NCBI GenBank assembly: GCA_050613775.1
Contig: JBODTK010000112.1
Location: 1 to 64,000, forward strand
Direction of reading: 5' to 3'
Source of the DNA: Neocallimastix sp. 'constans'
Taxonomy: Eukaryota
Length of the DNA stretch: 64,000 nucleotides
Position numbers and translations under genes: made by a program. Position 1 is the stretch's first letter, and every line of letters starts with the position of its first letter. Shown in pieces: positions 199-21,884 of the stretch. The notes below the pieces were generated by a model. The model searched no databases and had not been told where the DNA came from. It was given only the letters and a program-made list of their open reading frames with translations.

Positions 199-694
199 TG
201 ATAAGAATGTACTAAATAATGCATTCTTAATTAAATCTACGATTTATTTCTAATACATTATGTGTACATTATTATTTTTGTACTTTAATAAATTTTTAAA
301 TCCAAAGATCAAAAATTAAATCAAAAATTATATTAAACTTTATATTTTTATATTAAATCTTATATTAATAGTAATATTTTTATATATTTAAAACTTATAT
401 TAGCAATATTAATAATAAATCTTATTTTTTTTATATTAATAATGAAAATTTATATTAATAATATTTTTATATATTGATAATTAAAAATTTATATATTATA
501 TTTTAACTTTTTATTATAAAATTTTATATCGAAATGTTTTATTTTATATTGAAAAATATTTTATTTTATTAAAAACCTTTATATTAGAATAGTATTTTTA
601 TTTTTATTTGAATATTTTAACAGATTGTAATAAAAATTATAGCCAATTAAATAAATTCTTATTAGTAATATTTTAGATATTTTTAAATAAATAA

Positions 695-752
<58 letters not shown>

Positions 753-1056
753 TTTTATTAATATTATAAATGCATTTTATTTATATTGTTATAATTAAAT
801 TTTATATAATTAATTATAAAAATCAATTTAAATTTAATAGTTTCATATAAAAAAAAAAATAATAATAAAATGTAATTTAGTGGCAAGAACAACTTTTATG
901 CCTTGAAAAAAAAGTATAAATAGTTGTAAATTTTGCTACTAATTTTTAAATATCATCAAATAAAATCAAATAAATTTATAAATAAAAATAATAAATAAAT
1001 AAATAAAATTTGTGTTTCCTTACTTTATTTTTATTTAATTCTCTAAAACCTTAACA
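199..1056 (+). repeat. 5' LTR of element 1
   Basis: TGATAAGAATG...CCTTAACA, repeated at 7371, 8008 and 15150; contains an internal poly(A) tract. Confidence 0.95.
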
Positions 1057-1062
1057 TTTATA

Positions 1063-1080
1063 TGGTGGAGATATCGGGGA
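1063..1080 (+). promoter_or_regulatory. Primer-binding site complementary to the tRNA-Ala 3' end
   Basis: TGGTGGAGATATCGGGGA lies 6 nt after the LTR. Its complement ends TATCTCC-A-CCA, giving U70 and A73, consistent with the G3:U70 alanine identity element. Confidence 0.8.
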
Positions 1081-1740
1081 ATTAAATAGAAATAATAGTA
1101 AATAACATAGATTTTTTTTTAATTTTTTTTTTATTTTATATTGATAAACAAGTAAGTCGTTAATCCTTTGATTAACCCATGGCGCTTGTTTGATATATAT
1201 ATATAAAAAAAATTTTTTTTAAATAAGTAAAATTAAGATTCTAAAAAAACAAATTTTGTAAAATTATAACAAGGAGCGGATAGAGCTCATACACAGTGTA
1301 TTCTCAGATAGCAACAAATTAACTCTATTCATAGTAGGTTATTGAATAGTAGTTAATTTGGAGATTAATTGGAAAGTAGACGAAGGTATTTGGTTACCGA
1401 CCCGGTAATAATAGTTCAACCTTCAACGTTTCAACACACGAAGGTGCGGGTACTTTCCAAGCACTGGCGAATAAGGAGCTTACGTCACCGAAGGCGTAAG
1501 ATTGTTTTTTTTATATAATTTTTTTTACTTTTCTTTGTGCTAGTTATAAGGCACTTTATTATATAAAGTATCAGACTTTGGCTAACTTCGCCATTTAAAT
1601 TTTTTTTATTTTTTTTTATTACTGGTACTTTATTTGTTATATAATTCCTGTAATAGAATCTTAATTTACTTTGAAAATATTGTGTTTTTAGTTAATTTTT
1701 ATTAGTTAATAAAAATATTATTGAATACTTTTAAAATTTT

Positions 1741-1915
1741 TTTATTCCGTACATAGATTATCGGATTAAGTTTATCCTACATAGTAATTGGGCTAGTGGG
1801 CTCTGAACTGCTATATTTTATATTGAATATAGTAATCGTGGCACACGCGTGGCATGACACCATTAGGTAAGCTGCACGTCAGACAGTGTGTACTATCAGA
1901 TTGTACGACAATAAA
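1741..1915 (+). ncRNA. Conserved structured cis-RNA motif in the 5' leader (class unknown)
   Basis: Same stem architecture with compensatory changes as 17581-17750 in the divergent element 3. Confidence 0.7.
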
Positions 1916-2447: not shown

Positions 2448-3353
2448 ATGTCTACTAAAAGTACTTTAAGTTTTAAAGAATTAAAGAAAGAATTACGAGA
2501 CATAGTGAAGCTTAGCAAGGACAATTTAGATATAAAGTCCTGGGCTACTGAATTAAAACTTTGGATCAAGATACAAGGTATCACAGATCCGGAAACAATA
2601 TTTAATGCTTGTTTACTTACCAGCTCTGGTGAAGTACAACGCGTTATTGAAGATTTGGGAGAAGATAGTGATGATGAAAGTGATGATTCATCAGATGAAG
2701 AAGAAGATGATGAAGAAGAAAATGTTGATGATGATAAATTTCCTTCTCTTGAAAAAATTATTTCAAGTCTTGAAAATTTTTACGGTATTAAAGAAGACCA
2801 AAATTTACTTCTTAAAGAACTTCGTGCAATGCGAATTAAAAGAAACGAAAAGATTAAAGACTTTAATGTAAGATATAGAACTTTGTACACTAAACTTGAT
2901 AAAAAGAGAAGAAAGCGCATTGGTGTACTAGATTATATTGACTCTATTCAAAATAATTATGAAGCCTGGAAGAAATTATCCCTTAAAGATGATATAAGTA
3001 TGGAGAAAGCTTTCAAAATTGCCGAGAAAGTAGATAGACTTTCTGTAAGGAACAATAATATTAATACCTATAATGTTAATAATTCCCAGCATAATCAAAA
3101 TAATCAAAACAGTACTACTTCAAGACTTTATCCTAAAAGAAGAAACGAAACTTTCCAAACAAGTCAAACAAATAATAAACTGAAACCTCAAGATATTATA
3201 GAAGAATCAACCCAGAAAATGAGAAATTTATCTGTTAAAACTTGCTTCTTCTGTAAGGAAGAAGGTCATTACTCATACTATTGCCCTCAATTAAATAAGA
3301 TTATGGAAAAAAATAAAAAAGAAATATATTCCAAAAAGTCTTTAAACTTCTAA
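2448..3353 (+). CDS. gag: Gag with acidic tract and C-terminal CCHC zinc knuckle
   Basis: 301-aa ORF; CFFCKEEGHYSYYC fits CX2CX4HX4C; lies between PBS and pol. Confidence 0.92.
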   Translation: MSTKSTLSFKELKKELRDIVKLSKDNLDIKSWATELKLWIKIQGITDPETIFNACLLTSSGEVQRVIEDLGEDSDDESDDSSDEEEDDEEENVDDDKFPSLEKIISSLENFYGIKEDQNLLLKELRAMRIKRNEKIKDFNVRYRTLYTKLDKKRRKRIGVLDYIDSIQNNYEAWKKLSLKDDISMEKAFKIAEKVDRLSVRNNNINTYNVNNSQHNQNNQNSTTSRLYPKRRNETFQTSQTNNKLKPQDIIEESTQKMRNLSVKTCFFCKEEGHYSYYCPQLNKIMEKNKKEIYSKKSLNF

Positions 3354-3374
3354 ATGGGAGCAGAAGCACTCCCA
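3341..3374 (+). promoter_or_regulatory. -1 programmed ribosomal frameshift signal (gag-pol)
   Basis: T_TTA_AAC heptamer in gag frame, 7-nt spacer, hairpin TGGGAG-CAGAAGCA-CTCCCA; the -1 frame is open from 3341 into pol. Confidence 0.88.
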
Positions 3375-6300
3375 ATGACAAAACAATAGCTTCATTAAAT
3401 AATTTACAAAATAATACTTTTACCAAGAATACCCCAATTGATAATAATTCCTTTAATAAAGAATCTGAAGAATCTGATTTTAGTGACACAACTGAAAGTG
3501 AGGATAATATCATTATAAATGCTATAAAAAGAAAAATGAATGATAATAACAGCGAAAAGGAAGAAAATAATTCCAAGAAAGTACATAAAAGTTTAAAAGA
3601 TAATCCACGTCCTTTCGCAACTCCTGCTTTAAGAAAGAAGAAAGAAAATGAGCTACATAATAAACCAAATAAAGTTTATAAAAATCAAATACTTCCTTCA
3701 ATTTTAACTCAACCAAATATTAACAAAGAAAAACAAAAAGAAAAGGAATTAAGAAATATAACAAGAGTAAGAAAAAGTAAAGAAGAAAACAACAATTATT
3801 CATCAAAAGGAAAGAAAAAAGTTGAATCTGAAGATATACTCGTAATCGATAATGAAATAGAAGATATAGAAATGAATAAAGATAATCAACAAAATAAAAC
3901 TAATACTTTGGAAAAATTAATTTCAACAAAAACTAAAGAAACTAATAATGGAAATACTCAGTTAGTAAAAAGGAATATTAAAATGATGAATAATAAAGAA
4001 CCTTACAATATTATGGATGATTTAAATAATCTTAAATCCAGTATTACGATAGGTCAACTCTTGAATGCATGTCCGAAAATTCGTTCACAACTAACTCAAG
4101 GTTTAAAGTTAGAAAAATCTAAAATAATTGGAACTGTAGACAATGTAATAGCACGAACTTTATTAGTAAATAACTATGATCATAGCTACATAAGTAAAAG
4201 TAATGAAGTAGCCGAAGAAGACTTAGCAATGGTTGATGCAAGTGTTGACGGAGTACTAGGAAAACTTTTAATTGATTCTTGTAGTAACCTAAGCATCGTT
4301 ACTAAGCAGTATTTTGATAAATTACCTGGTGAATATGAAACAGTTGGAAAAAGTCGTGGAAGAATCCAACTAGCAACACAAGATGAAGAATACTCGGAAG
4401 GAATTATTGTTCGATTACCAGTAAAAATTAATAATTATGAATTTAATGCGGACTTTAGAATTATTGAGAAAGAAGACTCATTTTATGATATGTTAATAAA
4501 CTTTAAAACTCAAATTGATCATTGTTTATTTATTCATCCGACCTTAAACAGTTTATGTAAACTTTTGTCAGAAAGTGAATACGAAGAAATAGCTAAAATA
4601 AATAATCAATATTATGATGAAGAAAGTATAATTTGCACTATTAGAAAAGTTAAAGAAACGAATAATGAAAAGGAAATTATAAAGGAATTAACTCCAATGG
4701 AATTTATTGAGAGTGATGAATTTTTAAGTACCTTAAATAAAGATTATAAAGAACAAATTATTAAAATTCTCAAAGAAATGATTGACATAGTTGCCACTTC
4801 AACAGAAGAACTAACTCCTTCTAAACTTTCACCACATAAGATCCGTTTGAAAGCAAATTCAAAGCCAGTAAAATTAAGAAGTTATAGGTTAACTAAATTA
4901 AAATCAGATATCTTAAAAGAAGAACTTACAAAACTTATTAAGAAAGGATTGATAGAACCATCCTGTTCAGAATGGTCATCTCCAGTAGTACTTATTCTAA
5001 AACACAATGGAAAGTGGCGCTTGTGCATTGACTACCGAAAAGTCAATGATATGACAGAAAAAGATTCTTATTCAGTTCCATATATAGATGAAATTTTTGA
5101 TAGTCTCGGAGGAGCTAAAATATTTACAACTCTTGATTTATTTTCTGGTTTTCACCAAATCTTAATGGATGAAGAAAGCGTAGAAGTAACCACTTTCACT
5201 ACTAAGTTTGGAAATTATCAATTTAAGGTTATGCCTTTTGGACTTACTGGAGCTCCCTCAACCTTCCAAAGAGAAATGAATAAAATTTTATTCCCTTTTA
5301 TTGGTGAATTTGTTTACGTATTTATTGATGATGTTTTGATCTATTCAAAAAGTATCGAAGAACATTTAATTCATATTAAACAAGTATTAGAAGTATTTAA
5401 AGAAAACAAGTTAAAAATTAATATTGAAAAGTGCCATTTTCTTCAAACTGAAGTTGATGTATTAGGTCACAAACTTACTACTAAAGGATTAAGTCCCATG
5501 GAAAGTAAAATAACAGCTATTAAGAAGTGGGAAGCCCCTTCATCAATTCATGAATTAAGATCATTTCTAGGAGCAATAGGGATATTATCGTGACTTTATC
5601 CCTAAATATGCTCAAATTACCTCACCTTTATGTAAATTATTGAAAAAGAATACTAAATATGAATGGAATAAAGAACAACAAGAAAGCTTTGAACTCCTAA
5701 AAGAAAAATTAATCAATGCACCTATTCTAAAATTTCCGTCATTTGACAAACCTTTTATCATTAGAACTGATGCTTCGTATAATGGAATTGGTGGAGTTCT
5801 TTTACAAAAAGAAGAAGAAACCGGTAAGGAGCATCCAATACACTTTATAAGTAGAAGTTTAAAGAAAACTGAAAAGAATTATGGTATTACAGATTTGGAA
5901 GGAACAGCTTTATTTTACTGTATGACTAAATTTAAATCTTATATTGAAGGAAATCCATTACCTACAACTATTTACACAGATCATAAACCATTAGTTGGTT
6001 TATTTAAGAATAAAGAACCTTTGAATGCAAGGCAAACAAGATGGTGTCTAACCGCTGGTATGCTTGGAATTAATATAAAATATGAATCAGGCAAAAAGAA
6101 TGTGTTAGCTGATGCTCTTTCAAGAATGAAAAGTAAGGAAGAGAGAAAGATATTATTAACAAAAATTACTAATGGAAATAATGAAGAATTATTATCTAAG
6201 GTTATAAAGGAATTTATTAATGAAAAGTTTACTGTTATTGATGGTGAAGATTACTTTATCGACAATGGAAATTATAGAAAATTAATAACGGACGAAAATG

Positions 6301-7352
6301 AAAGGTTTAAATTAATTTTAGAAGCTCATAATATTGGCCACGAAGGATATTACAAAACATATCAAAGACTTAAGAAAAACTTTTATTGGAATCATATGAT
6401 TAAAGATATCAAAAGAATTGTTAGTAATTGTGAAAAATGCCAATTAAATCGTCCTCAACCATATCCAGAACCAACCGAAAACCATCCAACTAAAGTGGAG
6501 GGTCCCTTTGTGCATTTAGGATTAGATATTATAGGACCGTTACCAAAAACAAGAAATAATAATCAATATATTATAGTAACTGTTGATTACTTTACCAAAT
6601 GGGTTGAAGCCGAACCCACTGAAAACATAACTTCCTCTGATATAATTAAATTTTTAATAAACGTTTTTGCAAGACATGGTGTACCTCAAGTTATTACTAC
6701 TGATAATGGAGTCCAATTCACTTCTGATATGACTAAAATCTTTCTTGATCTTTATGATGTATATGTTAAATTTGTAGCTACTTACCACCCTGAATCAAAT
6801 GGCCTTACTGAAAATCGAAATAAAGAAATTGGAAAATTACTCCGTTTATTAGGAAGGAAAAATCAAGATTGGGATGAAGTTTTACCTTCTGCTTTATGGG
6901 CACTTCGAACTACCAAAAATACAGCTACTGGACATTCTAGTTTTGAATTAGTATATGGAAGAGAAGACCAACAGCCTTATGATATAGCCATAAGAACAAT
7001 TGAAAATGCAGGTAAATCATATGATGAAATCTTAATGGAAAAATTTGTTCGTCATTATCAATGGACTAGAGAAGCATGCGAAAATGTGAAGAATGCTAAC
7101 AAGTATTGGGCAACAAGACGAGAAGAACAAATAAGTATGAAAAAAGGAAAAGAATTAAAGGCTGGTGATCTTGTTCTTGTTAGAAACTTTAGCCGCACTA
7201 AGCTAGAACCATATTACAATGGACCATTTAAAATTTTAAAAATTCAATTCAACACGGCAACCCTAATCGATCAGAAGACTGGAAAGCAACTCGATAGGAA
7301 TGTTCACTTTAAAAATTTAGTAAAGTTTAACTCCGCTTACAGAGAAGCTTGA
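3341..7352 (+). pseudogene. pol: Pol polyprotein (PR-RT-RNase H-IN) broken by a 1-bp insertion at ~5582
   Basis: RT FIDD, RH TDAS/TDH/ADALSR, IN HHCC and DDE motifs. GGGATATTAT here versus GGGTATTAT in copy 2 splits the ORF into 3536-5593 and 5640-7352. Confidence 0.9.
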
Positions 7353-8002: not shown

Positions 8003-8489
8003 ACTGTTGATAAGAATGTACTAAATAATGCATTCTTAATTAAATCTACGATTTATTTCTAATACATTATGTGTACATTATTATTTTTGTACTTTAATAA
8101 ATTTTTAAATCCAAAGATCAAAAATTAAATCAAAAATTATATTAAACTTTATATTTTTATATTAAATCTTATATTAATAGTAATATTTTTATATATTTAA
8201 AACTTATATTAGCAATATTAATAATAAATCTTATTTTTTTTATATTAATAATGAAAATTTATATTAATAATATTTTTATATATTGATAATTAAAAATTTA
8301 TATATTATATTTTAACTTTTTATTATAAAATTTTATATCGAAATGTTTTATTTTATATTGAAAAATATTTTATTTTATTAAAAACCTTTATATTAGAATA
8401 GTATTTTTATTTTTATTTGAATATTTTAACAGATTGTAATAAAAATTATAGCCAATTAAATAAATTCTTATTAGTAATATTTTAGATAT

Positions 8490-8539
<50 letters not shown>

Positions 8540-9524
8540 TTTTATTAATATTATAAATGTATTTTATTTATATTGTTATAATTAAATTTTATATAATTGA
8601 TTATAAAATTTAATTTAAATTTAATAGTTTTTATAAAAAAAAAAAATAAATAAAATGTAATTTAGTGGCAAGAACAACTTTTATGCCTTGAAAAAAAGTA
8701 TAAATAGTTGTAAATTTTGCTACCAATTTTTAAAAATCATCAAATAAAATCAAATAAATTTATAAATAAAAATAATAAATAAATAAATAAAATTTGTGTT
8801 TCCTTACTTTATTTTTATTTAATTCTCTAAAACCTTAACATTTATATGGTGGAGATATCGGGGAATTAAATAGAAATAATAGTAAATAACATAGATTTTT
8901 TTTTAATTTTTTTTTATTTTATATTGATAAACAAGTAAGTCGTTAATCCTTTGATTAACCCATGGCGCTTGTTTGATATATATATATAAAAAAAAATTTT
9001 TTTTAAATAAGTAAAATTAAGATTCTAAAAAAACAAATTTTGTAAAATTATAACAAGGAGCGGATAGAGCTCATACACAGTGTATTCTCAGATAGCAACA
9101 AATTAACTCTATTCATAGTAGGTTATTGAATAGTAGTTAATTTGGAGATTAATTGGAAAGTAGACGAAGGTATTTGGTTACCGACCCGGTAATAATAGTT
9201 CAACCTTCAACGTTTCAACACACGAAGGTGCGGGTACTTTCCAAGCACTGGCGAATAAGGAGCTTACGTCACCGAAGGCGTAAGATTGTTTTTTTTATAT
9301 AATTTTTTTTACTTTTCTTTGTGCTAGTTATAAGGCACTTTATTATATAAAGTATCAGACTTTGGCTAACTTCGCCATTTAAATTTTTTTTATTTTTTTT
9401 TATTACTGGTACTTTATTTGTTATATAATTCCTGTAATAGAATCTTAATTTACTTTGAAAATATTGTGTTTTTAGTTAATTTTTATTAGTTAATAAAAAT
9501 ATTATTGAATACTTTTAAAATTTT

Positions 9525-9699
9525 TTTATTCCGTACATAGATTATCGGATTAAGTTTATCCTACATAGTAATTGGGCTAGTGGGCTCTGAACTGCTATAT
9601 TTTATATTGAATATAGTAATCGTGGCACACGCGTGGCATGACACCATTAGGTAAGCTGCACGTCAGACAGTGTGTACTATCAGATTGTACGACAATAAA
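9525..9699 (+). ncRNA. Second copy of the conserved leader RNA motif
   Basis: Matches 1741-1915 by inspection. Confidence 0.7.
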
Positions 9700-10227
9700 G
9701 ATTATTTTTTTGTATTTAATAATTATAATTAATTAATAATTTTATTAGCTATAACAATACAATATTTATCGTTTAAAAAGAAAAATTTTTGAAAGGTGAA
9801 AATAATAAATAAAACTTTGCTTCTAAATTTATTACTACAAATATACTAAATTACAAAATTCAAGTGGTCGATAAAGATTTCGAGCTTGAAAAATATTCTA
9901 TTAAGTTGTCGATAAAGATTTCGAACTTAAAATTATTCTATTAAGTTGTCGATAAAGATTTCGAACTTAAAATTATTCTTAAAAAAGTAGTCGAAAAGAA
10001 CCTCGTGCTTTATAATTTCTACTAAGTTGTCGATAAGGATTTCGAGCTTATACTAAAGAAAGCAAATAAAATTATTATTTTCAAAAATTACTAAGATATA
10101 TTGTTTTAAAATTTGATTCGATATTAAATTACTTGTTAAATTATATTTTTAAAGTTGGACTTTCAAATTTATTCGTATTTAATAACCTCGTTAATTTACA
10201 ATAAAAAAATTATTAACTAAAAACGAA

Positions 10228-11133
10228 ATGTCTACTAAAAGTACTTTAAGTTTTAAAGAATTAAAGAAAGAATTACGAGACATAGTGAAGCTTAGCAAGG
10301 ACAATTTAGATATAAAGTCCTGGGCTACTGAATTAAAACTTTGGATCAAGATACAAGGTATCACAGATCCGGAAACAATATTTAATGCTTGTTTACTTAC
10401 CAGCTCTGGTGAAGTACAACGCGTTATTGAAGATTTGGGAGAAGATAGTGATGATGAAAGTGATGATTCATCAGATGAAGAAGAAGATGATGAAGAAGAA
10501 AATGTTGATGATGATAAATTTCCTTCTCTTGAAAAAATTATTTCAAGTCTTGAAAATTTTTACGGTATTAAAGAAGACCAAAATTTACTTCTTAAAGAAC
10601 TTCGTGCAATGCGAATTAAAAGAAACGAAAAGATTAAAGACTTTAATGTAAGATATAGAACTTTGTACACTAAACTTGATAAAAAGAGAAGAAAGCGCAT
10701 TGGTGTACTAGATTATATTGACTCTATTCAAAATAATTATGAAGCCTGGAAGAAATTATCCCTTAAAGATGATATAAGTATGGAGAAAGCTTTCAAAATT
10801 GCCGAGAAAGTAGATAGACTTTCTGTAAGGAACAATAATATTAATACCTATAATGTTAATAATTCCCAGCATAATCAAAATAATCAAAACAGTACTACTT
10901 CAAGACTTTATCCTAAAAGAAGAAACGAAACTTTCCAAACAAGTCAAACAAATAATAAACTGAAACCTCAAGATATTATAGAAGAATCAACCCAGAAAAT
11001 GAGAAATTTATCTGTTAAAACTTGCTTCTTCTGTAAGGAAGAAGGTCATTACTCATACTATTGCCCTCAATTAAATAAGATTATGGAAAAAAATAAAAAA
11101 GAAATATATTCCAAAAAGTCTTTAAACTTCTAA
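10228..11133 (+). CDS. gag: Gag with CCHC zinc knuckle
   Basis: Protein identical to 2448-3353. Confidence 0.93.
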   Translation: MSTKSTLSFKELKKELRDIVKLSKDNLDIKSWATELKLWIKIQGITDPETIFNACLLTSSGEVQRVIEDLGEDSDDESDDSSDEEEDDEEENVDDDKFPSLEKIISSLENFYGIKEDQNLLLKELRAMRIKRNEKIKDFNVRYRTLYTKLDKKRRKRIGVLDYIDSIQNNYEAWKKLSLKDDISMEKAFKIAEKVDRLSVRNNNINTYNVNNSQHNQNNQNSTTSRLYPKRRNETFQTSQTNNKLKPQDIIEESTQKMRNLSVKTCFFCKEEGHYSYYCPQLNKIMEKNKKEIYSKKSLNF

Positions 11134-14100
11134 ATGGGAGCAGAAGCACTCCCAATGACAAAACAATAGCTTCATTAAATAATTTACAAAATAATACTTT
11201 TACCAAGAATACCCCAATTGATAATAATTCCTTTAATAAAGAATCTGAAGAATCTGATTTTAGTGACACAACTGAAAGTGAGGATAATATCATTATAAAT
11301 GCTATAAAAAGAAAAATGAATGATAATAACAGCGAAAAGGAAGAAAATAATTCCAAGAAAGTACATAAAAGTTTAAAAGATAATCCACGTCCTTTCGCAA
11401 CTCCTGCTTTAAGAAAGAAGAAAGAAAATGAGCTACATAATAAACCAAATAAAGTTTATAAAAATCAAATACTTCCTTCAATTTTAACTCAACCAAATAT
11501 TAACAAAGAAAAACAAAAAGAAAAGGAATTAAGAAATATAACAAGAGTAAGAGAAAGTAAAGAAGAAAACAACAATTATTCATCAAAAGGAAAGAAAAAA
11601 GTTGAATCTGAAGATATACTTGTAATCGATAATGAAATAGAAGATATAGAAATGAATAAAGATAATCAACAAAATAAAACTAATACTTTGGAAAAATTAA
11701 TTTCAACAAAAACTAAAGAAACTAATAATGAAAATACTCAGTTAGTAAAAAGGAATATCAAAATGATGAATAATAAAGAACCTTACAATATTATGGATGA
11801 TTTAAATAATCTTAAATCCAGTATTACGATAGGTCAACTCTTGAATGCATGTCCGAAAATTCGTTCACAATTAACTCAAGGTTTAAAGTTAGAAAAATCT
11901 AAAATAATTGGAACTGTAGACAATGTAATAGCACGAACTTTATTAGTGAATAACTATGATCATAGCTACATAAGTAAAAGTAATGAAGTAGCCGAAGAAG
12001 ACTTAGCAATGGTTGATGCAAGTGTTGACGGAGTACTAGGAAAACTTTTAATTGATTCTTGTAGTAACCTAAGCATCGTTACTAAGCAGTATTTTGATAA
12101 ATTACCTGGTGAATATGAAACAGTTGGAAAAAGTCGTGGAAGAATCCAACTAGCAACACAAGATGAAGAATACTCGGAAGGAATTATTGTTCAATTACCA
12201 GTAAAAATTAATAATTATGAATTTAATGCGGACTTTAGAATTATTGAGAAAGAAGACTCATTTTATGATATGTTAATAAACTTTAAAACTCAAATCGATC
12301 ATTGTTTATTTATTCATCCGACCTTAAACAGTTTATGTAAACTTTTGTCAGAAAGTGAATACGAAGAAATAGCTAAAATAAATAATCAATATTATGATGA
12401 AGAAAGTATAATTTGCACTATTAGAAAAGTTAAAGAAACGAATAATGAAAAGGAAATTATAAAGGAATTAACTCCAATGGAATTTATTGAGAGTGATGAA
12501 TTTTTAAGTACCTTAAATAAAGATTATAAAGAACAAATTATTAAAATTCTCAAAGAAATGATTGACATAGTTGCCACTTCAACAGAAGAACTAACTCCTT
12601 CTAAACTTTCACCACATAAGATCCGTTTGAAAGCAAATGCAAAGCCAGTAAAATTAAGAAGTTATAGGTTAACTAAATTAAAATCAGATATCTTAAAAGA
12701 AGAACTTACAAAGCTTATTAAGAAAGGATTGATAGAACCATCCTGTTCAGAATGGTCATCTCCAGTAGTACTCATTCTAAAACACAATGGAAAGTGGCAC
12801 TTGTGTATTGACTACCGAAAAGTCAATGATATGACAGAAAAAGATTCTTATTCAGTTCCATATATAGATGAAATTTTTGATAGTCTCGGAGGATCTAAAA
12901 TATTTACAACTCTTGATTTATTTTCTGGTTTTCACCAAATCTTAATGGATGAAGAAAGCGTTGAAGTAACCACTTTCACTACTAAGTTTGGAAATTATCA
13001 ATTTAAGGTTATGCCTTTTGGACTTACTGGAGCTCCCTCAACCTTCCAAAGAGAAATGAATAAAATTTTATTCCCTTTTATTGGTGAATTTGTTTATGTA
13101 TTTATTGATGATGTTTTGATCTATTCAAAAAGTATCGAAGAACATTTAATTCATATTAAACAAGTATTAGAAGTATTTAAAGAAAACAAGTTAAAAATTA
13201 ATATTGAAAAGTGCCATTTTCTTCAAACTGAAGTTGATGTATTAGGTCACAAACTTACTACTAAAGGATTAAGTCCCATGGAAAGTAAAATAACAGCTAT
13301 TAAGAAGTGGGAAGCCCCTTCATCAATTCATGAATTAAGATCATTTCTAGGAGCAATAGGGTATTATCGTGACTTTATCCCTAAATATGCTCAAATTACC
13401 TCACCTTTATGTAAATTATTGAAAAAGAATACTAAATATGAATGGAATAAAGAACAACAAGAAAGCTTTGAACTCCTAAAAGAAAAATTAATCAATGCAC
13501 CTATTCTAAAATTTCCGTCATTTGACAAACCTTTTATCATTAGAACTGATGCTTCGTATAATGGAATTGGTGGAGTTCTTTTACAAAAAGAAGAAGAAAC
13601 CGGTAAGGAGCATCCAATACACTTTATAAGTAGAAGTTTGAAGAAAACTGAAAAGAATTATGGTATCACAGATTTGGAAGGAACAGCTTTATTTTACTGT
13701 ATGACTAAATTTAAATCTTATATTGAAGGAAATCCATTACCTACAACTATTTACACAGATCATAAACCATTAGTTGGTTTATTTAAGAATAAAGAACCTT
13801 TGAATGCAAGGCAAACAAGATGGTGTCTAACCGCTAGTATGCTTGGAATTAATATAAAATATGAATCAGGCAAAAAGAATGTGTTAGCTGATGCTCTTTC
13901 AAGAATGAAAAGTAAGGAAGAGAGAAAGATATTATTAACAAAAATTACTAATGGAAATAATGAAGAATTATTATCTAAGGTTATAAAGGAATTTATTAAT
14001 GAAAAGTTTACTGTTATTGATGGTGAAGATTACTTTATCGACAATGGAAATTATAGAAAATTAATAACGGACGAAAATGAAAGGTTTAAATTAATTTTAG

Positions 14101-15131
14101 AAGCTCATAATATTGGCCACGAAGGATATTACAAAACATATCAAAGACTTAAGAAAAACTTTTATTGGAATCATATGATTAAAGATATCAAAAGAATTGT
14201 TAGTAATTGTGAAAAATGCCAATTAAATCGTCCTCAACCATATCCAGAACCAACCGAAAACCATCCAACTAAAGTGGAGGGTCCCTTTGTGCATTTAGGA
14301 TTAGATATTATAGGACCGTTACCAAAAACAAGAAATAATAATCAATATATTATAGTAACTGTTGATTACTTTACCAAATGGGTTGAAGCCGAACCCACTG
14401 AAAACATAACTTCCTCTGATATAATTAAATTTTTAATAAACGTTTTTGCAAGACATGGTGTACCTCAAGTTATTACTACTGATAATGGAGTCCAATTCAC
14501 TTCTGATATGACTAAAATCTTTCTTGATCTTTATGATGTATATGTTAAATTTGTAGCTACTTACCACCCTGAATCAAATGGCCTTACTGAAAATCGAAAT
14601 AAAGAAATTGGAAAATTACTCCGTTTATTAGGAAGGAAAAATCAAGATTGGGATGAAGTTTTACCTTCTGCTTTATGGGCACTTCGAACTACCAAAAATA
14701 CAGCTACTGGACATTCTAGTTTTGAATTAGTATATGGAAGAGAAGACCAACAGCCTTATGATATAGCCATAAGAACAATTGAAAATGCAGGTAAATCATA
14801 TGATGAAATCTTAATGGAAAAATTTGTTCGTCATTATCAATGGACTAGAGAAGCATGCGAAAATGTGAAGAATGCTAACAAGTATTGGGCAACAAGACGA
14901 GAAGAACAAATAAGTATGAAAAAAGGAAAAGAATTAAAGGCTGGTGATCTTGTTCTTGTTAGAAACTTTAGCCGCACTAAGCTAGAACCATATTACAATG
15001 GACCATTTAAAATTTTAAAAATTCAATTCAACACGGCAACCCTAATCGATCAGAAGACTGGAAAGCAACTCGATAGGAATGTTCACTTTAAAAATTTAGT
15101 AAAGTTTAACTCCGCTTACAGAGAAGCTTGA
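11121..15131 (+). CDS. pol: Pol polyprotein (PR-RT-RNase H-integrase, GPF tail, no chromodomain), entered by -1 frameshift at 11121-11127
   Basis: Uninterrupted ORF (1271 aa from the first ATG at 11316) with LDLFSGFHQI, MPFGL, FIDD, TDAS, HHCC, DNG and YHPESNGLTE motifs. Confidence 0.96.
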   Translation, partial: FKLLNGSRSTPNDKTIASLNNLQNNTFTKNTPIDNNSFNKESEESDFSDTTESEDNIIINAIKRKMNDNNSEKEENNSKKVHKSLKDNPRPFATPALRKKKENELHNKPNKVYKNQILPSILTQPNINKEKQKEKELRNITRVRESKEENNNYSSKGKKKVESEDILVIDNEIEDIEMNKDNQQNKTNTLEKLISTKTKETNNENTQLVKRNIKMMNNKEPYNIMDDLNNLKSSITIGQLLNACPKIRSQLTQGLKLEKSKIIGTVDNVIARTLLVNNYDHSYISKSNEVAEEDLAMVDASVDGVLGKLLIDSCSNLSIVTKQYFDKLPGEYETVGKSRGRIQLATQDEEYSEGIIVQLPVKINNYEFNADFRIIEKEDSFYDMLINFKTQIDHCLFIHPTLNSLCKLLSESEYEEIAKINNQYYDEESIICTIRKVKETNNEKEIIKELTPMEFIESDEFLSTLNKDYKEQIIKILKEMIDIVATSTEELTPSKLSPHKIRLKANAKPVKLRSYRLTKLKSDILKEELTKLIKKGLIEPSCSEWSSPVVLILKHNGKWHLCIDYRKVNDMTEKDSYSVPYIDEIFDSLGGSKIFTTLDLFSGFHQILMDEESVEVTTFTTKFGNYQFKVMPFGLTGAPSTFQREMNKILFPFIGEFVYVFIDDVLIYSKSIEEHLIHIKQVLEVFKENKLKINIEKCHFLQTEVDVLGHKLTTKGLSPMESKITAIKKWEAPSSIHELRSFLGAIGYYRDFIPKYAQITSPLCKLLKKNTKYEWNKEQQESFELLKEKLINAPILKFPSFDKPFIIRTDASYNGIGGVLLQKEEETGKEHPIHFISRSLKKTEKNYGITDLEGTALFYCMTKFKSYIEGNPLPTTIYTDHKPLVGLFKNKEPLNARQTRWCLTASMLGINIKYESGKKNVLADALSRMKSKEERKILLTKITNGNNEELLSKVIKEFINEKFTVIDGEDYFIDNGNYRKLITDENERFKLILEAHNIGHEGYYKTYQRLKKNFYWNHMIKDIKRIVSNCEKCQLNRPQPYPEPTENHPTKVEGPFVHLGLDIIGPLPKTRNNNQYIIVTVDYFTKWVEAEPTENITSSDIIKFLINVFARHGVPQVITTDNGVQFTSDMTKIFLDLYDVYVKFVATYHPESNGLTENRNKEIGKLLRLLGRKNQDWDEVLPSALWALRTTKNTATGHSSFELVYGREDQQPYDIAIRTIENAGKSYDEILMEKFVRHYQWTREACENVKNANKYWATRREEQISMKKGKELKAGDLVLVRNFSRTKLEPYYNGPFKILKIQFNTATLIDQKTGKQLDRNVHFKNLVKFNSAYREA

Positions 15132-15631
15132 GTCTTCGTCGGGGCATCTTGATAAGAATGTACTAAATAATGCATTCTTAATTAAATCTACGATTTATTT
15201 CTAATACATTATGTGTACATTATTATTTTTGTACTTTAATAAATTTTTAAATCCAAAGATCAAAAATTAAATCAAAAATTATATTAAACTTTATATTTTT
15301 ATATTAAATCTTATATTAATAGTAATATTTTTATATATTTAAAACTTATATTAGCAATATTAATAATAAATCTTATTTTTTTTATATTAATAATGAAAAT
15401 TTATATTAATAATATTTTTATATATTGATAATTAAAAATTTATATATTATATTTTAACTTTTTATTATAAAATTTTATATCGAAATGTTTTATTTTATAT
15501 TGAAAAATATTTTATTTTATTAAAAACCTTTATATTAGAATAGTATTTTTATTTTTATTTGAATATTTTAACAGATTGTAATAAAAATTATAGCCAATTA
15601 AATAAATTCTTATTAGTAATATTTTAGATAT

Positions 15632-15696
<65 letters not shown>

Positions 15697-17334
15697 TTTT
15701 ATTAATATTATAAATGTATTTTATTTATATTGTTATAATTAAATTTTATATAATTGATTATAAAATTTAATTTAAATTTAATAGTTTTTATAAAAAAAAA
15801 AAATAAATAAAATGTAATTTAGTGGCAAGAACAACTTTTATGCCTTGAAAAAAAGTATAAATAGTTGTAAATTTTGCTACCAATTTTTAAAAATCATCAA
15901 ATAAAATCAAATAAATTTATAAATAAAAATAATAAATAAATAAATAAAATTTGTGTTTCCTTACTTTATTTTTATTTAATTCTCTAAAACCTTAACACTG
16001 TTGATAAATAACAAAATTATTAAATTAAAATAAATAATAAAAAACAAATTCTTGTCTAACTTAACCCAAAAATTAATCCATTCTAAAAAAAATTAAATCC
16101 ATATTTAAGAAAAATTAATTAAATAAAAATAATTAAAATAAAATAATAATAAATTAATTAATCATTAATAATTTTAATTAAAAACTAAAATAAATTAATA
16201 AATAATATTTTTCTAAGACTACAAATAAACAAAATAATAAACAAATTTAATAAATTATAAATAACAAATAAACAAACTTATAAACATCTCAAAATTAAAA
16301 TTAACTAGTTAAATAATTTTTTAAGTTACTTTTATTTAAAATAATGATTATTTTATTTATTTTATAACTCAACTTTTATAAACAAATTGTAATTAAAATA
16401 ACATTTTAAAACTCATCTTTATCAACATTTTAATTGTAAATATTGTTTAATTTAATAATAAATTATTCTTTATTTCTCTTTTATTAATTTTATTATTTTA
16501 ATGTAAATAGTTTAAAATCAAAGAAAAATATAAAAACATGTAAATATTTCTTATAAATTATTCTTTATTATTAATTATTTAATAAATTATTATAAATATT
16601 TTATTAGTTTTAATAATCAAAAAGTATGATTATTAATTATTTAATAAATTATTATAAATATTTTATTAGTTTTAATAATCAAAAGTATGATTATTAATTA
16701 GTTAATAAATTATTATAAATATTTTATTAGTTATTAATAATCAATTTTATTATTAAAATTTAAAATAAATTAGTATAAATAATAAATATTTCATTTTATT
16801 ATTTTATTAGTTTTTAACAATTATTTTATTAATTTAAACAAAATTAATTATTAAATAAATAAAGATTAATATTAAAATAAAAATAAATTTTTTTTAATAA
16901 AACATTTTTGTGTTTAATAATAAAACATATTTATTTTTTTAAATTCCTTAAATCAATTTTTATTCAGTATTTATCCTTTTATTCACTTCTGCAAAATTTA
17001 ATTTTTGTAGATTAAGAATATTAGGTATAAATCAATGGTGGAGAATCCTCTTGTTGCCCCGGTGGTAAGTAAAATTTTTTTAGTTTAATATTAGAATAAG
17101 CCTAGTTATTCAATGGTAATATTAAACAATAATTAATACAATAAATTAGTCTAGTTTTAGAATAACTCTAAATTATTCATAGTAATAGACTCAAATAGAT
17201 TTATCTAAATAATATGCAAATAAAATATTATAGCAATAAATTATTATAAATTAAAGTTATTAATATAAATTAATCAACAAATAATATACGTTAAATAAAC
17301 TGCAAATTAAATTAAATTTATCTTTAATAATTAA

Positions 17335-17388
<54 letters not shown>

Positions 17389-17418
17389 ATTAGAAAAATT
17401 TTAATATAAAAAAATTTT

Positions 17419-17461
<43 letters not shown>

Positions 17462-17580
17462 AATAAAAATAAAAATAAAAATAAAATATAACGGAAGAAC
17501 TTTAAGAAGTTCTATTATAAAATTATTATTTATTTTTCAAAAAAGAATATTGTTGCTTTAGAAGCAATAATATAAGTAAA

Positions 17581-17750
17581 ATAATAAGTGGTTTCCGTGA
17601 TTAGTTTATTCTTTCACAGTCGGCGCGCTGGGAAGCTCTGAACTATTCTACAAACGTATAAACGTGTAGGAGAATCACTGGTACGAGTAGTACATGACGC
17701 CTGAGCAAGTGGGCAAGCTGGCTACGAGTATACTACCTACTTATTACTTA
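17581..17750 (+). ncRNA. Conserved structured leader RNA motif, family-B variant
   Basis: Shares GATTA(A)GTTTAT, GCTCTGAACT, AATC, CATGAC, AAGCTG and TACTA in the same order as 1741-1915, with covarying stems. Confidence 0.7.
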
Positions 17751-17923
17751 TATTATTGGAAAATCGTAATTAATATTCTTTTGAGAATTATTAATAATAA
17801 ATATTTATAATTTAACTTTTTATTCTTCTTTAAATATTCAAATAATAAAAATTTATAAATACCATTATACTACTTAACCTTTTATTTTTTTTAATATTTT
17901 CTAGGATATTATTGTATAAAATA

Positions 17924-17987
<64 letters not shown>

Positions 17988-18421
17988 AATAAATAAATAA
18001 ATATATAATAAAAAAAAATAAAATTAGAAAACAATAAAATTTAAATTAAGGAAAACAAATAAAGAAAAGAAGTATTTTTTTTAGTTGGAGGAACTGCTTC
18101 TGTTCTCTTGATTGATTGATACTTATAGTAGGAATCTCTTACCCTTAATACTAGTGTATTATTGCAGTAAGAGCTAACGGACTGTAGAATAAGAATCAAT
18201 ACGGGGGAGTAGGCGCTGATTATAAGTAGAGATCTACGTTAGGTGTAGACGTAGTGTAAAACTCCTATAATCAGTGGGACCAAACGTCGTATTATTCTAC
18301 AACCGTACTATAAGGACGGGAAATCATTCAAGATAAACTAAAGATAATAAGAATTAATAATTTTAGAAATATTACTACTACTACTAATAATAATAATTAA
18401 CAAAAAAAAAAAAAAAAAAAA

Positions 18422-19354
18422 ATGGAAACAACTACCAAAGCTATTACTTTTAGTAGATTACCAATATTAGGTGAAGAAAAAGTCCAATATGAAGAATGGA
18501 AATTCGCCTTTGAAAATTGGTGTCGAAAATATAAAATTGAAAACGAAGAAAAGAATGAATATTTAATTGCCGTAACTACAGATAAAGCAAGAACTATTGT
18601 TATAAATTCTTTAAATAAAGCACAAGCTGACTCTTATGAAATAATCTTAGAAAACTTAAAGAAAAGATTTAAACCTTGTACTCCAAAGAATGTAAAATTT
18701 TTGGAAATATCAACATTAACCATTAAGAAAGGTGAAAAAGTTTCCGACTTCGATACAAAATTCTTACAACTCTTAAATCAATTACAATTAGATGGAAAGG
18801 ATTATATTAGTACTCCATACTACATAAATGCATTTAGAAACTGGTCTAAAATGTATGAGTATTTGTTAGAATCAGAACCTACTAAATTAAGTGATGCAAT
18901 GGAAATAACTTCAAAAAAGGAAAAAATGCTTAAACTTCTTGAAGACAATAAACCAAAATCTAAAACTCAATTCTCAAATGTAAAGAAGAATCTAAATAAC
19001 ACTAATAATAACAATAATAAAAATACTAATTTTAGATCTTTTAACACCAATTATTACAATAAAATTCCTTTTATCTCTAATACTAGGACTAATGAAAATT
19101 CCAGTTATAATAATAAATTTAGAAATAATAACTATAACAACAATTTTACTACAAATAGAAATTTTTACAACCCTGTAGAATTCAACAAAGGAGTCGAACA
19201 GAGAAGAGCAACTTTAAAAAGTTCTCAATTCACTGATAAAGAACTAGATGATATAACAAAAAAATTATCCGATTTAAAAATCAACCTATGCATAAATTGT
19301 CAGCGTATTGGTCACATTGTTGAAGAATGTCCAGAATTAAACCATTTAAATTAG
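18422..19354 (+). CDS. gag: Gag with CCHC zinc knuckle
   Basis: 310-aa ORF; CINCQRIGHIVEEC motif. Confidence 0.9.
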   Translation: METTTKAITFSRLPILGEEKVQYEEWKFAFENWCRKYKIENEEKNEYLIAVTTDKARTIVINSLNKAQADSYEIILENLKKRFKPCTPKNVKFLEISTLTIKKGEKVSDFDTKFLQLLNQLQLDGKDYISTPYYINAFRNWSKMYEYLLESEPTKLSDAMEITSKKEKMLKLLEDNKPKSKTQFSNVKKNLNNTNNNNNKNTNFRSFNTNYYNKIPFISNTRTNENSSYNNKFRNNNYNNNFTTNRNFYNPVEFNKGVEQRRATLKSSQFTDKELDDITKKLSDLKINLCINCQRIGHIVEECPELNHLN

Positions 19355-20721
19355 TTATCGGGAGTACGCAATCTCCCGAGATAAATAAAATTGCAACAAA
19401 CAACTATGATCAAGAATATACTATAGAATATGAAGGAAACAATAATTATATGATTAATGCAGCCCAAAAGAGAAAATTACTAAGTAAGAATGCATTGGAT
19501 AAAAATAAAATATCACCAAGTAATAAATCTATAGTAAAACCTTCCATTCTAAATCAACCTAATATAAAAGCTGTTAAACAACAGAAGAAAGCCATTAGAG
19601 ATAAAAGAAGAAGAGAAATTACAAATGATATAGAAGACATGGATTTATCTAATAATAATATTACGCATGAAGAATCTAATAATAATAGTGAAAGTGTTCG
19701 TGCAACCAATTTTGACAAACCCCAACCCAATATTCCTAATGAAAATAATTATCAAGATAATAATTCAAATACTATACCAGAAAAAGTTAAAACAAAAGGT
19801 AAGCGAAACATGACCGAAATACAAATGTTAAAACCTGAAAATAAATTCAATATTCTAGAAGAAGCCAATAATTTATATCCTAAAATTAGCCTAACACAAT
19901 TATTATCAGCTAGTCCATCTATAAGAAAAGATCTAGAACAAGGTTGTAAACCACGAGTTGAGAAAATACTTTATACTATTCAAAATTTAAATATTCCTAT
20001 ATTATGTGGAAAAATAGGAAACAAATCAGTCAAAATACTTTTCGACACAGGTGCAAATGTTAACATCATAACTAAAAATTCACTTGAAGAACTAGAAAAT
20101 GTAATCATTAATAATTGTGACCTTTCTGAAACTATTACAATTGCCGATGGTACAATACTCCATACTAATTCTTATATAAATTTAAAATTAACTATAAATA
20201 ATAACTTAACTGTGAATGAGAAATTTTATATAATAGATTATACAAATCCATTCTTTAATATTATATTAGGAAGAGGTATACAAAAGAAGTACAGACTCTA
20301 CATTGATCCAGATGATGATTGCTTATATCAAAAAACAAAAAAAGGAATTAAAAGAATAACTGAAATATATAATAACCATACTTCTTTAAAGACGCCTATG
20401 TGTAATGCAATAATAATAGAAAAGAATAAAGGTATCGGAAGTACTCTTTTGCAAAAGGAGGAAGACAAATTAGAACACCCAACTTGTTGTTTAAGTAGGA
20501 CATTGTCAATCAACAATAACAAACCAATAAAATTTATAACTGATTATAAGCCACTTTTAGGTTTGCTCAAGAAAAATATTCCTAACAACAATAGACATGC
20601 TCGTTGGATAGAAGAATTCAATAAATACAAAACCAACCTAGTTTATCAAAAAAGAAAAAGAAATCTTTTCGATGATGCACTTTCAAGACTATCATCAAAA
20701 GACTCTAAAACAACACTTTAG
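19327..20721 (+). CDS. pol: Truncated Pol: N-terminal extension, aspartic protease, fused RNase H remnants
   Basis: LFDTGAN and IILG protease motifs, then GIGSTLLQ...HP, TDYKPL and DALSR RNase H fragments; no RT motifs. Confidence 0.85.
   Translation: MSRIKPFKLVIGSTQSPEINKIATNNYDQEYTIEYEGNNNYMINAAQKRKLLSKNALDKNKISPSNKSIVKPSILNQPNIKAVKQQKKAIRDKRRREITNDIEDMDLSNNNITHEESNNNSESVRATNFDKPQPNIPNENNYQDNNSNTIPEKVKTKGKRNMTEIQMLKPENKFNILEEANNLYPKISLTQLLSASPSIRKDLEQGCKPRVEKILYTIQNLNIPILCGKIGNKSVKILFDTGANVNIITKNSLEELENVIINNCDLSETITIADGTILHTNSYINLKLTINNNLTVNEKFYIIDYTNPFFNIILGRGIQKKYRLYIDPDDDCLYQKTKKGIKRITEIYNNHTSLKTPMCNAIIIEKNKGIGSTLLQKEEDKLEHPTCCLSRTLSINNNKPIKFITDYKPLLGLLKKNIPNNNRHARWIEEFNKYKTNLVYQKRKRNLFDDALSRLSSKDSKTTL
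19345..19379 (+). promoter_or_regulatory. -1 frameshift signal
   Basis: T_TTA_AAT heptamer directly before the gag TAG; hairpin TCGGGAG-TACGCAAT-CTCCCGA 6 nt downstream; the next ORF is in the -1 frame. Confidence 0.85.
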
Positions 20722-21884
20722 TTCTTGAAGATCCACAAACAGGAAAACTCCTTAAAAGAAATGTTCATATAAAAATTTTTTCCCTTATGTACTACAAGAA
20801 AATGATACAACTTCAAGGGACGAAGTTGACTCTTAAGGGCCGAGAAATTGATAAATAACAAAATTATTAAATTAAAATAAATAATAAAAAACAAATTCTT
20901 GTCTAACTTAACCCAAAAATTAATCCATTCTAAAAAAAATTAAATCCATATTTAAGAAAAATTAATTAAATAAAAATAATTAAAATAAAATAATAATAAA
21001 TTAATTAATCATTAATAATTTTAATTAAAAACTAAAATAAATTAATAAATAATATTTTTCTAAGACTACAAATAAACAAAATAATAAACAAATTTAATAA
21101 ATTATAAATAACAAATAAACAAACTTATAAACATCTCAAAATTAAAATTAACTAGTTAAATAATTTTTTAAGTTACTTTTATTTAAAATAATGATTATTT
21201 TATTTATTTTATAACTCAACTTTTATAAACAAATTGTAATTAAAATAACATTTTAAAACTCATCTTTATCAACATTTTAATTGTAAATATTGTTTAATTT
21301 AATAATAAATTATTCTTTATTTCTCTTTTATTAATTTTATTATTTTAATGTAAATAGTTTAAAATCAAAGAAAAATATAAAAACATGTAAATATTTCTTA
21401 TAAATTATTCTTTATTATTAATTATTTAATAAATTATTATAAATATTTTATTAGTTTTAATAATCAAAAAGTATGATTATTAATTATTTAATAAATTATT
21501 ATAAATATTTTATTAGTTTTAATAATCAAAAGTATGATTATTAATTAGTTAATAAATTATTATAAATATTTTATTAGTTATTAATAATCAATTTTATTAT
21601 TAAAATTTAAAATAAATTAGTATAAATAATAAATATTTCATTTTATTATTTTATTAGTTTTTAACAATTATTTTATTAATTTAAACAAAATTAATTATTA
21701 AATAAATAAAGATTAATATTAAAATAAAAATAAATTTTTTTTAATAAAACATTTTTGTGTTTAATAATAAAACATATTTATTTTTTTAAATTCCTTAAAT
21801 CAATTTTTATTCAGTATTTATCCTTTTATTCACTTCTGCAAAATTTAATTTTTGTAGATTAAGAATATTAGGTATAAATCACTG

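Follow-up and report, generated by a model that had tools for sequence, protein, structure and literature searches.

A covariation-supported RNA fold in the leaders of divergent fungal Ty3/gypsy retrotransposons, with a possible role in packaging

The Locus and Its Retrotransposons

The window analysed here, a single stretch of 64 kb with a G+C content of 17.6%, carries three Ty3/gypsy elements, A1, A2, and B, arranged in a head-to-tail stack (Table 1). Their class is indicated by LTRs, a primer site, a gag with a CCHC knuckle, and a PR-RT-RNase H-integrase order, and among solved structures the RT is closest to that of Ty3 (E 4.3e-82 to 1.4e-99). Named relatives of both Gags belong to Orpinomyces, Neocallimastix, Anaeromyces, and Piromyces, which makes an anaerobic gut fungus the most likely host. 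The complement of the A primer site ends like a tRNA-Ala acceptor (the G3-U70 rule); no tRNA genes were found in the 64-kb window. The 3' LTR of A1 is truncated at about 8003. Element borders carry CTGT at 8004-8007, 15998-16001, and 21882-21885 and ACTG at 195-198, and because the same 4-bp word lies between the elements of this head-to-tail stack, repeated, sequence-directed insertion at LTR ends is suggested. Elsewhere the window holds a third, decayed gypsy-like element (about 21890-27270, minus strand) with gag and pol remnants and without the fold described below, a class C GPCR-like (7tm_3) gene (32507-34276, minus strand), and a MULE/FLYWCH transposase remnant (38894-40310, minus strand).

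Table 1. Features of the three elements and of the predicted fold; L123 to L127 are metagenome leaders described in the text.
Feature	Position	Strand	Remarks
5' LTR of A1	199..1056	+	
Primer binding site of A1	1063..1082	+	A2 counterpart at 8847
Consensus donor GTAAGT	A1 1152..1157; A2 8935; B 17065; L123 364	+	30-90 nt after primer-site start
Fold copy A1	1741..1915	+	covariance-model score 188.9 bits
P1 in A1	1748-1753 with 1902-1907; 1756-1758 with 1895-1897	+	closes both domains
Domain 1 in A1	1761..1841	+	P2 1761-1767 with 1834-1841
Arm P3 in A1	1769-1809	+	borne by P2
GCUCUG	A1 1800..1805; B 17635-17640	+	CUC side of U/CUC internal loop and U-G wobble
Variable hairpin P4 in A1	1811-1832	+	borne by P2
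Domain 2 in A1	1842..1894	+	P5, bulged purine 1852, 4x4 internal loop 1855-1858 / 1869-1872
5' splice-site-like UAG/GUAAGC	1864..1872	+	in P5, +1 at 1867 (A2: 9651)
UACU junction strand in A1	1891-1894	+	kept in 7/7
gag of A1	2448..3353	+	301 aa, single CCHC knuckle with aromatic residues
pol of A1	3317..7352	+	split by frame break near 5590
Element A2	8008..15997	+	LTRs 8008-8840 and 15150-15997
Fold copy A2	9525..9699	+	identical to A1
Open pol of A2	11097-15131	+	RT, RNase H, integrase
Element B	16002..21881	+	LTRs 16002-17034 and 20849-21881, 99.9% identical
Primer binding site of B	17036..17049	+	first 9 bases as in A
UUAGAAGC in B	17558..17565	+	5' of P1; common to L124 and L127; absent from A, L123, L125, L126
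Fold copy B	17581..17750 (core 17590-17737)	+	covariance-model score 110.8 bits
UGG/GCAAGC in B, matching UAG/GUAAGC	17710..17718	+	+1 at 17713; weak, GC type
GGAAAAU in B	17758..17764	+	3' of P1; common to L124 and L127
Candidate 3' splice site in B	17874..17904	+	branch-like TTAAC, T-tract, CTAG; 192 nt after donor-like word
gag of B	18422-19354	+	intact; B pol without RT and integrase

The first-pass annotation had placed three copies of one structured RNA in this window, and all three are present, with every helix that it named. A1 and A2 are identical over 1736-1920 and 9520-9704, so the window holds two independent versions of the fold. The Gags of the A and B elements are, as had been claimed, very different (18% identity by BLASTP, 24% in a multiple alignment), and BLAST of the window against itself yielded no match between A and B over 150 nt at E 1e-20. 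Taken by itself, folding energy supports the fold weakly, with z scores of -2.3 for A and -0.9 for B and about the same values on the minus strand; because this energy is unremarkable, more families were required, and the support comes from covariation in them.

Further Leaders and Covariation

Metagenome contigs were scanned with an alignment of A-clade Gags, which returned at least 10 loci, and among the matches listed were five whole Ty3/gypsy leaders, L123 to L127, chosen by protein and not by RNA. Their Gags are 88% (L123), 54% (L124), 53% (L125), 51% (L126), and 47% (L127) identical to that of A, and the fold is present in all five. One further locus, L122, has 64 nt only upstream of gag. 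Four others, L128 to L131, come from G+C-rich contigs and match Gag weakly, at 32-35% across some 60 residues; these were discarded as unrelated, as was L121, a plant pararetrovirus-like contig obtained with an RT query.

A covariance model, which the first-pass annotation had proposed as a check, was built from A, B, L123, L125, and L126, and it found both of the leaders that were held out (L127 at E 6.5e-10 and L124 at E 5.9e-6); the next match in 94 kb, at E 0.8, is noise, and E-values from this model are to be read as rough. The same model found the fold nowhere else in the 64-kb window, the decayed gypsy-like element included, and matched none of 85 control loci (80 pattern matches and L128-L132). 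Two strict patterns had no match in viral contigs, and a loose pattern gave at least 120 chance matches there, of which 80 were scored with the covariance model, none matching; Gag alignments found no viral relatives. The prokaryote scan returned one chimeric contig, L132, with a B-type gag fragment and without a leader, and no model match in its genome. In this contig, from a rumen bacterial genome bin, the fungal fragment (4998-5393) is fused to bacterial sequence at the contig end, and it is probably an assembly chimera. A BLAST search of phages gave just 24-nt chance matches in 4 records.

The seven related sequences (A, B, and the five metagenome leaders) are too few for an R-scape-grade test, and covariation was assessed by several routes. 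When the seven were aligned with plain MAFFT and folded with RNAalifold, both domains came out, and 22 of 42 pairs showed changes in both partners. In a sequence-only alignment of five, 91% of cells are paired, versus 30-40% with slid partners, and 17 pairs show double changes, versus 7.2 in shuffles. Higher figures come from a model-fitted alignment of the seven, which leans towards structure (96.6% of cells paired, 33 of 52 pairs double-changed), and from a hand segmentation, also fitted, in which 256 of 259 cells pair over 37 core pairs and 21 of these pairs are changed on both sides, in keeping with the compensated stem variation first reported. Where L126 and L125 can be compared with A unambiguously, 7 of 7 double changes preserve the pair. 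The core pairs of the seven sequences include 24 G-U cells and no A-C cells, which bears out the earlier view that G-U pairs favour the sense strand and points to a sense-strand RNA. On this covariation, we regard the RNA fold of 150-175 bases as real.

Searches of Rfam 15 with the window gave no match at the gathering threshold; the best E-values, 7.9 and 4.9, both lay outside the fold, and searches of five loci gave nothing at E<=1. The fold is thus not a member of any family tested, and the failure to match hammerhead, HDV, twister, pistol, or hatchet, first noticed by eye, holds in this search and extends to the IRES, riboswitch, and retroviral leader families of Rfam 15. Covariation and the Rfam result together support the broader proposal of a functional sense-strand RNA structure that is common to divergent families and absent from Rfam.

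Anatomy of the Fold

The predicted architecture is a tandem three-way junction closed by the outer stem P1. Both domains of the two-domain fold originally drawn are recovered, but P1 and a 2-bp YC/GG helix had been overlooked. Around the lower junction follow P1, UW, P2 (whose first pairs are YC/GG), P5, and UACU; the upper junction bears P3 and the variable P4. P3 is built of a wobble-rich helix, a U/CUC internal loop, 5 bp, a bulged A, and an apical loop, and P5 of a variable asymmetric loop, a bulged purine, CA/UG, the 4x4 loop, and RCC/GGY. P3a is a U-rich:purine helix, UUU(A)/UGRA, with a U-G pair in 6 of 7 sequences.

Loop nucleotides had been described as fixed, and this is so for part of them. 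CUC, GG, UACU, GG, and UG are invariant in all seven, whereas the 4x4 loop and all apical loops vary: TGAC/AAGC, once called invariant, is replaced by AGAC/AAGC in L125, UGAA/GAGC in L124, and AAA/GAAG in L127. All seven keep the CUC of the U/CUC loop, and six of them the U-G wobble and CUCUG; by analogy with retroviral sites, GCUCUG is a candidate nucleocapsid site. The invariant junction bases make tertiary structure likely, although no conserved pseudoknot is common to all seven folds and no kissing or other loop-loop pairing common to them exceeds 3 bp. Two words flank the fold in B, L124, and L127 and are missing in the other four: UUAGAAG, 32-38 nt upstream of P1, and GGAAA, 20-25 nt downstream of this stem.

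Position in the Leader and Translation

Every one of the seven distinct leaders examined has the fold between primer site and gag, a position that is the strongest guide to its function. Retroviral packaging signals lie in this leader region. Within it the fold floats, with the primer site 112-679 nt upstream and the gag AUG 166-1383 nt downstream, in leaders of about 500-1800 nt from primer site to AUG. Other structured or repeated segments occur in the same leaders. A second G+C-rich structure (z -4.0) is specific to A leaders (1265-1505 and about 9049-9289; L123 500-735), and its last hairpin has a block of compensatory changes relative to L123. Element B has its own G+C-rich structured block before gag (18084-18330, z -2.6), preceded by a T-tract and TAG. 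Three leaders share a TCGA-flanked short dyad repeat in 3-5 copies between fold and gag (2084-2260 and 9868-10045; L123 1294-1490; L127 1160-1285), possibly DNA-level factor sites.

The fold could be a translation element, either an IRES or a closed structure past which ribosomes would be shunted during scanning, and the length of the leaders counts for this. On the sense strand, 7 AUGs are seen 3' of the fold where dinucleotide shuffles lead to an expectation of 52, 5 of these 7 are no farther than 120 nt from where the fold ends (p about 0.002), and 6 of 7 leaders tolerate an AUG inside it. This crowding near the fold end would be explained by a shunt or by a short intron. AUGs are depleted 5' of the fold as well (6 seen versus 24 expected; leaving out L123, a near-copy, gives 5 versus 16.3, p about 0.001), whereas the LTRs are not depleted (9 versus 9.6 and 5 versus 5.8 expected). 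The last LTR AUG of A1 is at 898, and the transcript would be expected to start beyond it. With AUGs depleted on both sides of the fold, the leader looks like one that ribosomes scan from the cap, which leaves no need for an IRES. An IRES would have a fixed spacing to the start codon and no need of an AUG-free 5' region, but the spacing here is as variable as given above, the stem is not preceded by a conserved short ORF, and no Rfam IRES family matches. A conserved short ORF starting from the in-fold AUG was also considered and rejected, because L125 has AAG at this place and loop lengths shift the frame. A variant in which the fold is perhaps a translation/packaging switch draws on the flanking word GGAAAAU, which in B, L124, and L127 is predicted to pair with the UUUCC junction strand at -5.5 to -12.4 kcal/mol, an alternative pairing that makes a switch possible. 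Taken together, we consider a translational function unlikely.

A Donor-Like Word in P5

The 3' strand of the 4x4 loop resembles a 5' splice site, with G/GYRAG in 6 of 7 sequences (L127 is without the +5 G) and G-[UC]-purine-A kept at +1 to +4 in all seven. As a donor the word appears moderate: it matches 5-7 of 9 consensus positions, ranks from 1 to 27 within its leaders, and is top-ranked in 1 of 7 and 27th of 71 in B. A consensus donor, GTAAGT, lies closer to the primer site in A1, A2, B, and L123, where its placement resembles that of the retroviral major splice donor; it was not found in L125 or L126.

If folding of P5 set the use of this buried donor, possibly under ligand or protein control, the fold could be a splice switch that yields a spliced mRNA beside the genome. 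B and L124 have a branch-like sequence, a T-tract, and a YAG at 192 and 214 nt, spacings that match two host introns of 206 and 215 nt read from the window, and the AUGs that remain are concentrated immediately downstream of the donor-like word. These are, however, the only 2 of 7 leaders with a good acceptor within 250 nt downstream; none lies within 300 nt of the word in A, L123, L125, L126, or L127, and acceptor-like sites are equally common on the antisense strand. The account of Ty1 and Ty3 in PMC4974528 further states that splicing of their RNA has not been detected. Such a switch seems to us very unlikely.

A Possible Packaging Signal

The function that the fold most likely resembles, by analogy, is that of a core encapsidation signal, and the reading that it selects full-length RNA for packaging is the one we favour, at a little less than even confidence. 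The functions first listed as candidates are narrowed accordingly by the observations above and below: packaging or export fits best, an IRES is disfavoured by the AUG depletion, and a ribozyme by the position and by the missing substrate hairpin. Several features would be expected of an encapsidation signal. In all seven leaders the fold is found upstream of gag on the sense strand, and covariation predicts a multibranched structure with weakly paired G residues. Element B retains the fold despite the loss of RT and integrase, as expected for a signal that acts in cis.

If the fold is a packaging signal, the unspliced RNA would be scanned from the cap and translated into Gag, and closure of P1 would make the module a self-contained unit. 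Gag would then bind the weakly paired UUU(A)/UGRA helix and the CUCUG adjoining the upper junction, in the mode of retroviral nucleocapsids on labile G residues. P5 would bury the donor-like site, so that folding could suppress splicing, and RNA spliced at this word would lose P5 and P1 and would, on this proposal, therefore not be packaged.

The closest parallel in design is the HIV-1 psi-CES, described as about 150 nt long and folded into a tandem three-way junction, with the splice donor sequestered and with bases downstream of that donor also required (PMC7599994); its first nucleocapsid site is placed in a labile UUUU:GGAG wobble helix beside a junction (PMC7395439). As far as those descriptions extend, the fold is alike in size, leader position, tandem junction, paired donor-like site, dependence on bases 3' of this site, and U:purine wobble helix. 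The match is architectural and without sequence homology; the fold includes neither U5 nor the gag AUG, floats in position, and belongs to fungal Ty3/gypsy elements. It also differs in having no conserved palindromic dimer loop, an idea that we tried and found unsupported, as strict 6-mer palindromes at L3 occur in 2 of 7 sequences, at chance level (0.19-0.65 with a shuffled loop).

The nucleocapsid of MoMuLV, which has a single knuckle, is reported to bind UCUG (PMC7395439, PMC7599994), and the elements here have a single-knuckle Gag and a UCUG word in 6 of 7 folds. Among PDB entries, the A-clade Gag profile matches the MoMuLV nucleocapsid best, at weak significance (1u6p, E 0.012). In the fold, UCUG sits in an internal loop and wobble helix and not in a linker, and Rfam gives no match. 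The MoMuLV packaging signal, of the type that Rfam names Gammaretro_CES, has GACG kissing hairpins, whereas the fold has none. Ty3 is the closest element class; according to a 2016 review, its UTR contributes to packaging and its gRNA packaging requires the zinc finger, and that review treats its RNA structure as uncharacterised and its packaging sequences as not precisely defined (PMC4974528). The pseudoknot and palindromes of Ty1 were not seen in the fold.

The main difficulty for packaging lies in the Gag proteins. In A-clade knuckles, F or Y stands second after the first Cys in all 43 found, which would fit an aromatic G-binding cleft in 43 of 43; in B-clade knuckles this residue is N or Q in 28 of 28 and no aromatic residue follows His in any of the 28, which would leave no such cleft at those positions, yet B has the same fold. 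The CCHC motif of the B-clade Gags (P0063-P0101) is mostly C-[ILV]-N-C...H-[VI], without aromatics, which is unusual for an RNA-binding nucleocapsid. Just one B-clade leader was seen, that of element B, since L132 is chimeric and has no leader. The lack of a conserved palindromic dimer loop, the moderate strength of the donor-like word with a good acceptor in so few leaders, and the purely architectural match to the psi-CES also weigh against packaging. Separately, at the 3' end of gag, all seven elements have LN(x)-stop and, next to it downstream, an inverted pair, GGGAG...CTCCC, that is conserved (3320-3375, 19324-19385, and the gag ends of L123-L127), where pol overlaps in another frame; the inverted pair is likely a frameshift signal.

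Across 21 non-independent pairs, fold identity does not track Gag identity (Spearman 0.11), which also counts against packaging. A and L126 share 90% fold identity at 52% Gag identity, and this comparison, together with the Gag tree, suggests that the fold module has been exchanged between element families, but the data do not reject a tree that groups the four A-type folds together (AU p 0.10). The fold tree has no supported branches.

A Host Factor as a Possible Partner

The lack of a correlation between fold and Gag identity is easier to reconcile with a host partner than with a Gag that evolves along with the fold, and the B-clade knuckles without aromatic residues make a host-factor role, in export or through U1, a real rival to packaging. 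By analogy with a CTE, the fold could let unspliced RNA leave the nucleus or survive. The 4x4 loop might bind Mex67/Nxf1 or another host protein, and the donor-like word might bind U1 snRNP without splicing and so guard the AATAAA-rich leader, which has 5-17 AATAAA, against early polyadenylation. The fold is kept across Gags 18-24% identical with unlike knuckles, and the pattern that all seven keep at +1 to +4 of the donor-like word would suit U1. CTEs are described as having an internal loop that binds protein and, near it, a conserved 5' splice site proposed as a U1 site (PMC4338338), and the murine retrotransposon MusD as having a structured transport element (PMC3362945). The likeness to these elements (the CTEs of MPMV and NXF1 intron 10, and MusD), so far as those sources portray them, would be a stem whose internal loop is conserved and lies close to a word resembling a 5' splice site.

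The loop itself fits less well. The CTE inner loop is given as 6x6 (PMC4338338) and the gamma-CTE as carrying AAGACA (PMC7551171), whereas the loop here is 4x4, is without AAGACA, and varies in L127; the word beside it has the wide range of ranks noted above. Domain 1, with half of the conserved bases, would be left unexplained. The fold differs further in being multibranched and in lying in the 5' leader, whereas the transport elements of simple retroviruses usually lie 3'; PMC7551171 describes such a 3' placement. A host-factor element of this kind is, in our judgment, somewhat improbable.

A Conceivable Ribozyme with the VS Helix Order

The helix order of the fold is that of stems II-VI of the Neurospora VS ribozyme, with two three-way junctions in the order II-III-VI / III-IV-V and an internal loop in the last arm (PMC5573960, PMC4536322), and a self-cleaving ribozyme of a new class could be envisaged. 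Within what those papers depict, size, closing stem, and the bulge and internal loop of the last arm are alike, and UACU, GG, and CUC are invariant junction bases. In B, L124, and L127, UUAGAAGC lies 5' of P1, where VS has its substrate hairpin, but this word is absent in 4 of 7. The fold has no conserved substrate stem-loop or kissing loop, the VS ACAA turn and the A730/A756 and A730/G757 loop features are not reproduced, junction and loop sequences differ, and the arm that corresponds to VS stem IV ranks with the best-conserved parts of the fold. No Rfam ribozyme matches. Cleavage between the primer site and gag would split the genome, parting the primer site from gag-pol, and would uncap the mRNA, which argues against a ribozyme. 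Given this position and the missing conserved substrate hairpin, kissing loop, and pseudoknot, self-cleavage seems very unlikely.

A bolder combination would make the fold a self-sufficient, Gag-independent catalytic or switchable RNA with the VS helix order, passed between families, in which a UUAGAAGC hairpin and GGAAAAU would serve as substrate or switch strand and the hidden donor would decide between the fates of genome and mRNA; we give this quite a low probability.

Novelty and Implications

The fold lies outside every family tested and is new as a motif, with a function that is probably of a known kind. A search of the literature on these fungi and on retrotransposon RNA structure, which took in few subscription papers, found no description of it, and with this coverage an earlier one may exist.

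Packaging and export signals are usually unalignable between distant families. Here one compact fold persists across Gags about 20-60% identical, with flanks that cannot be aligned. The packaging and export signals of LTR retrotransposons are portrayed as poorly defined, even for Ty3 (PMC6844567, PMC4974528), and the fold offers a covariation-defined target for the question of how a retrotransposon picks its own full-length RNA. In either a packaging or a host-factor role, the fold qualifies as a candidate for a new Rfam family. Should its partner be a host factor, fungi would have their own counterpart of the CTE; should it serve in packaging, fungal Ty3/gypsy elements would have reached a tandem-junction, buried-donor design of the HIV-1 type, by convergence or by old descent.
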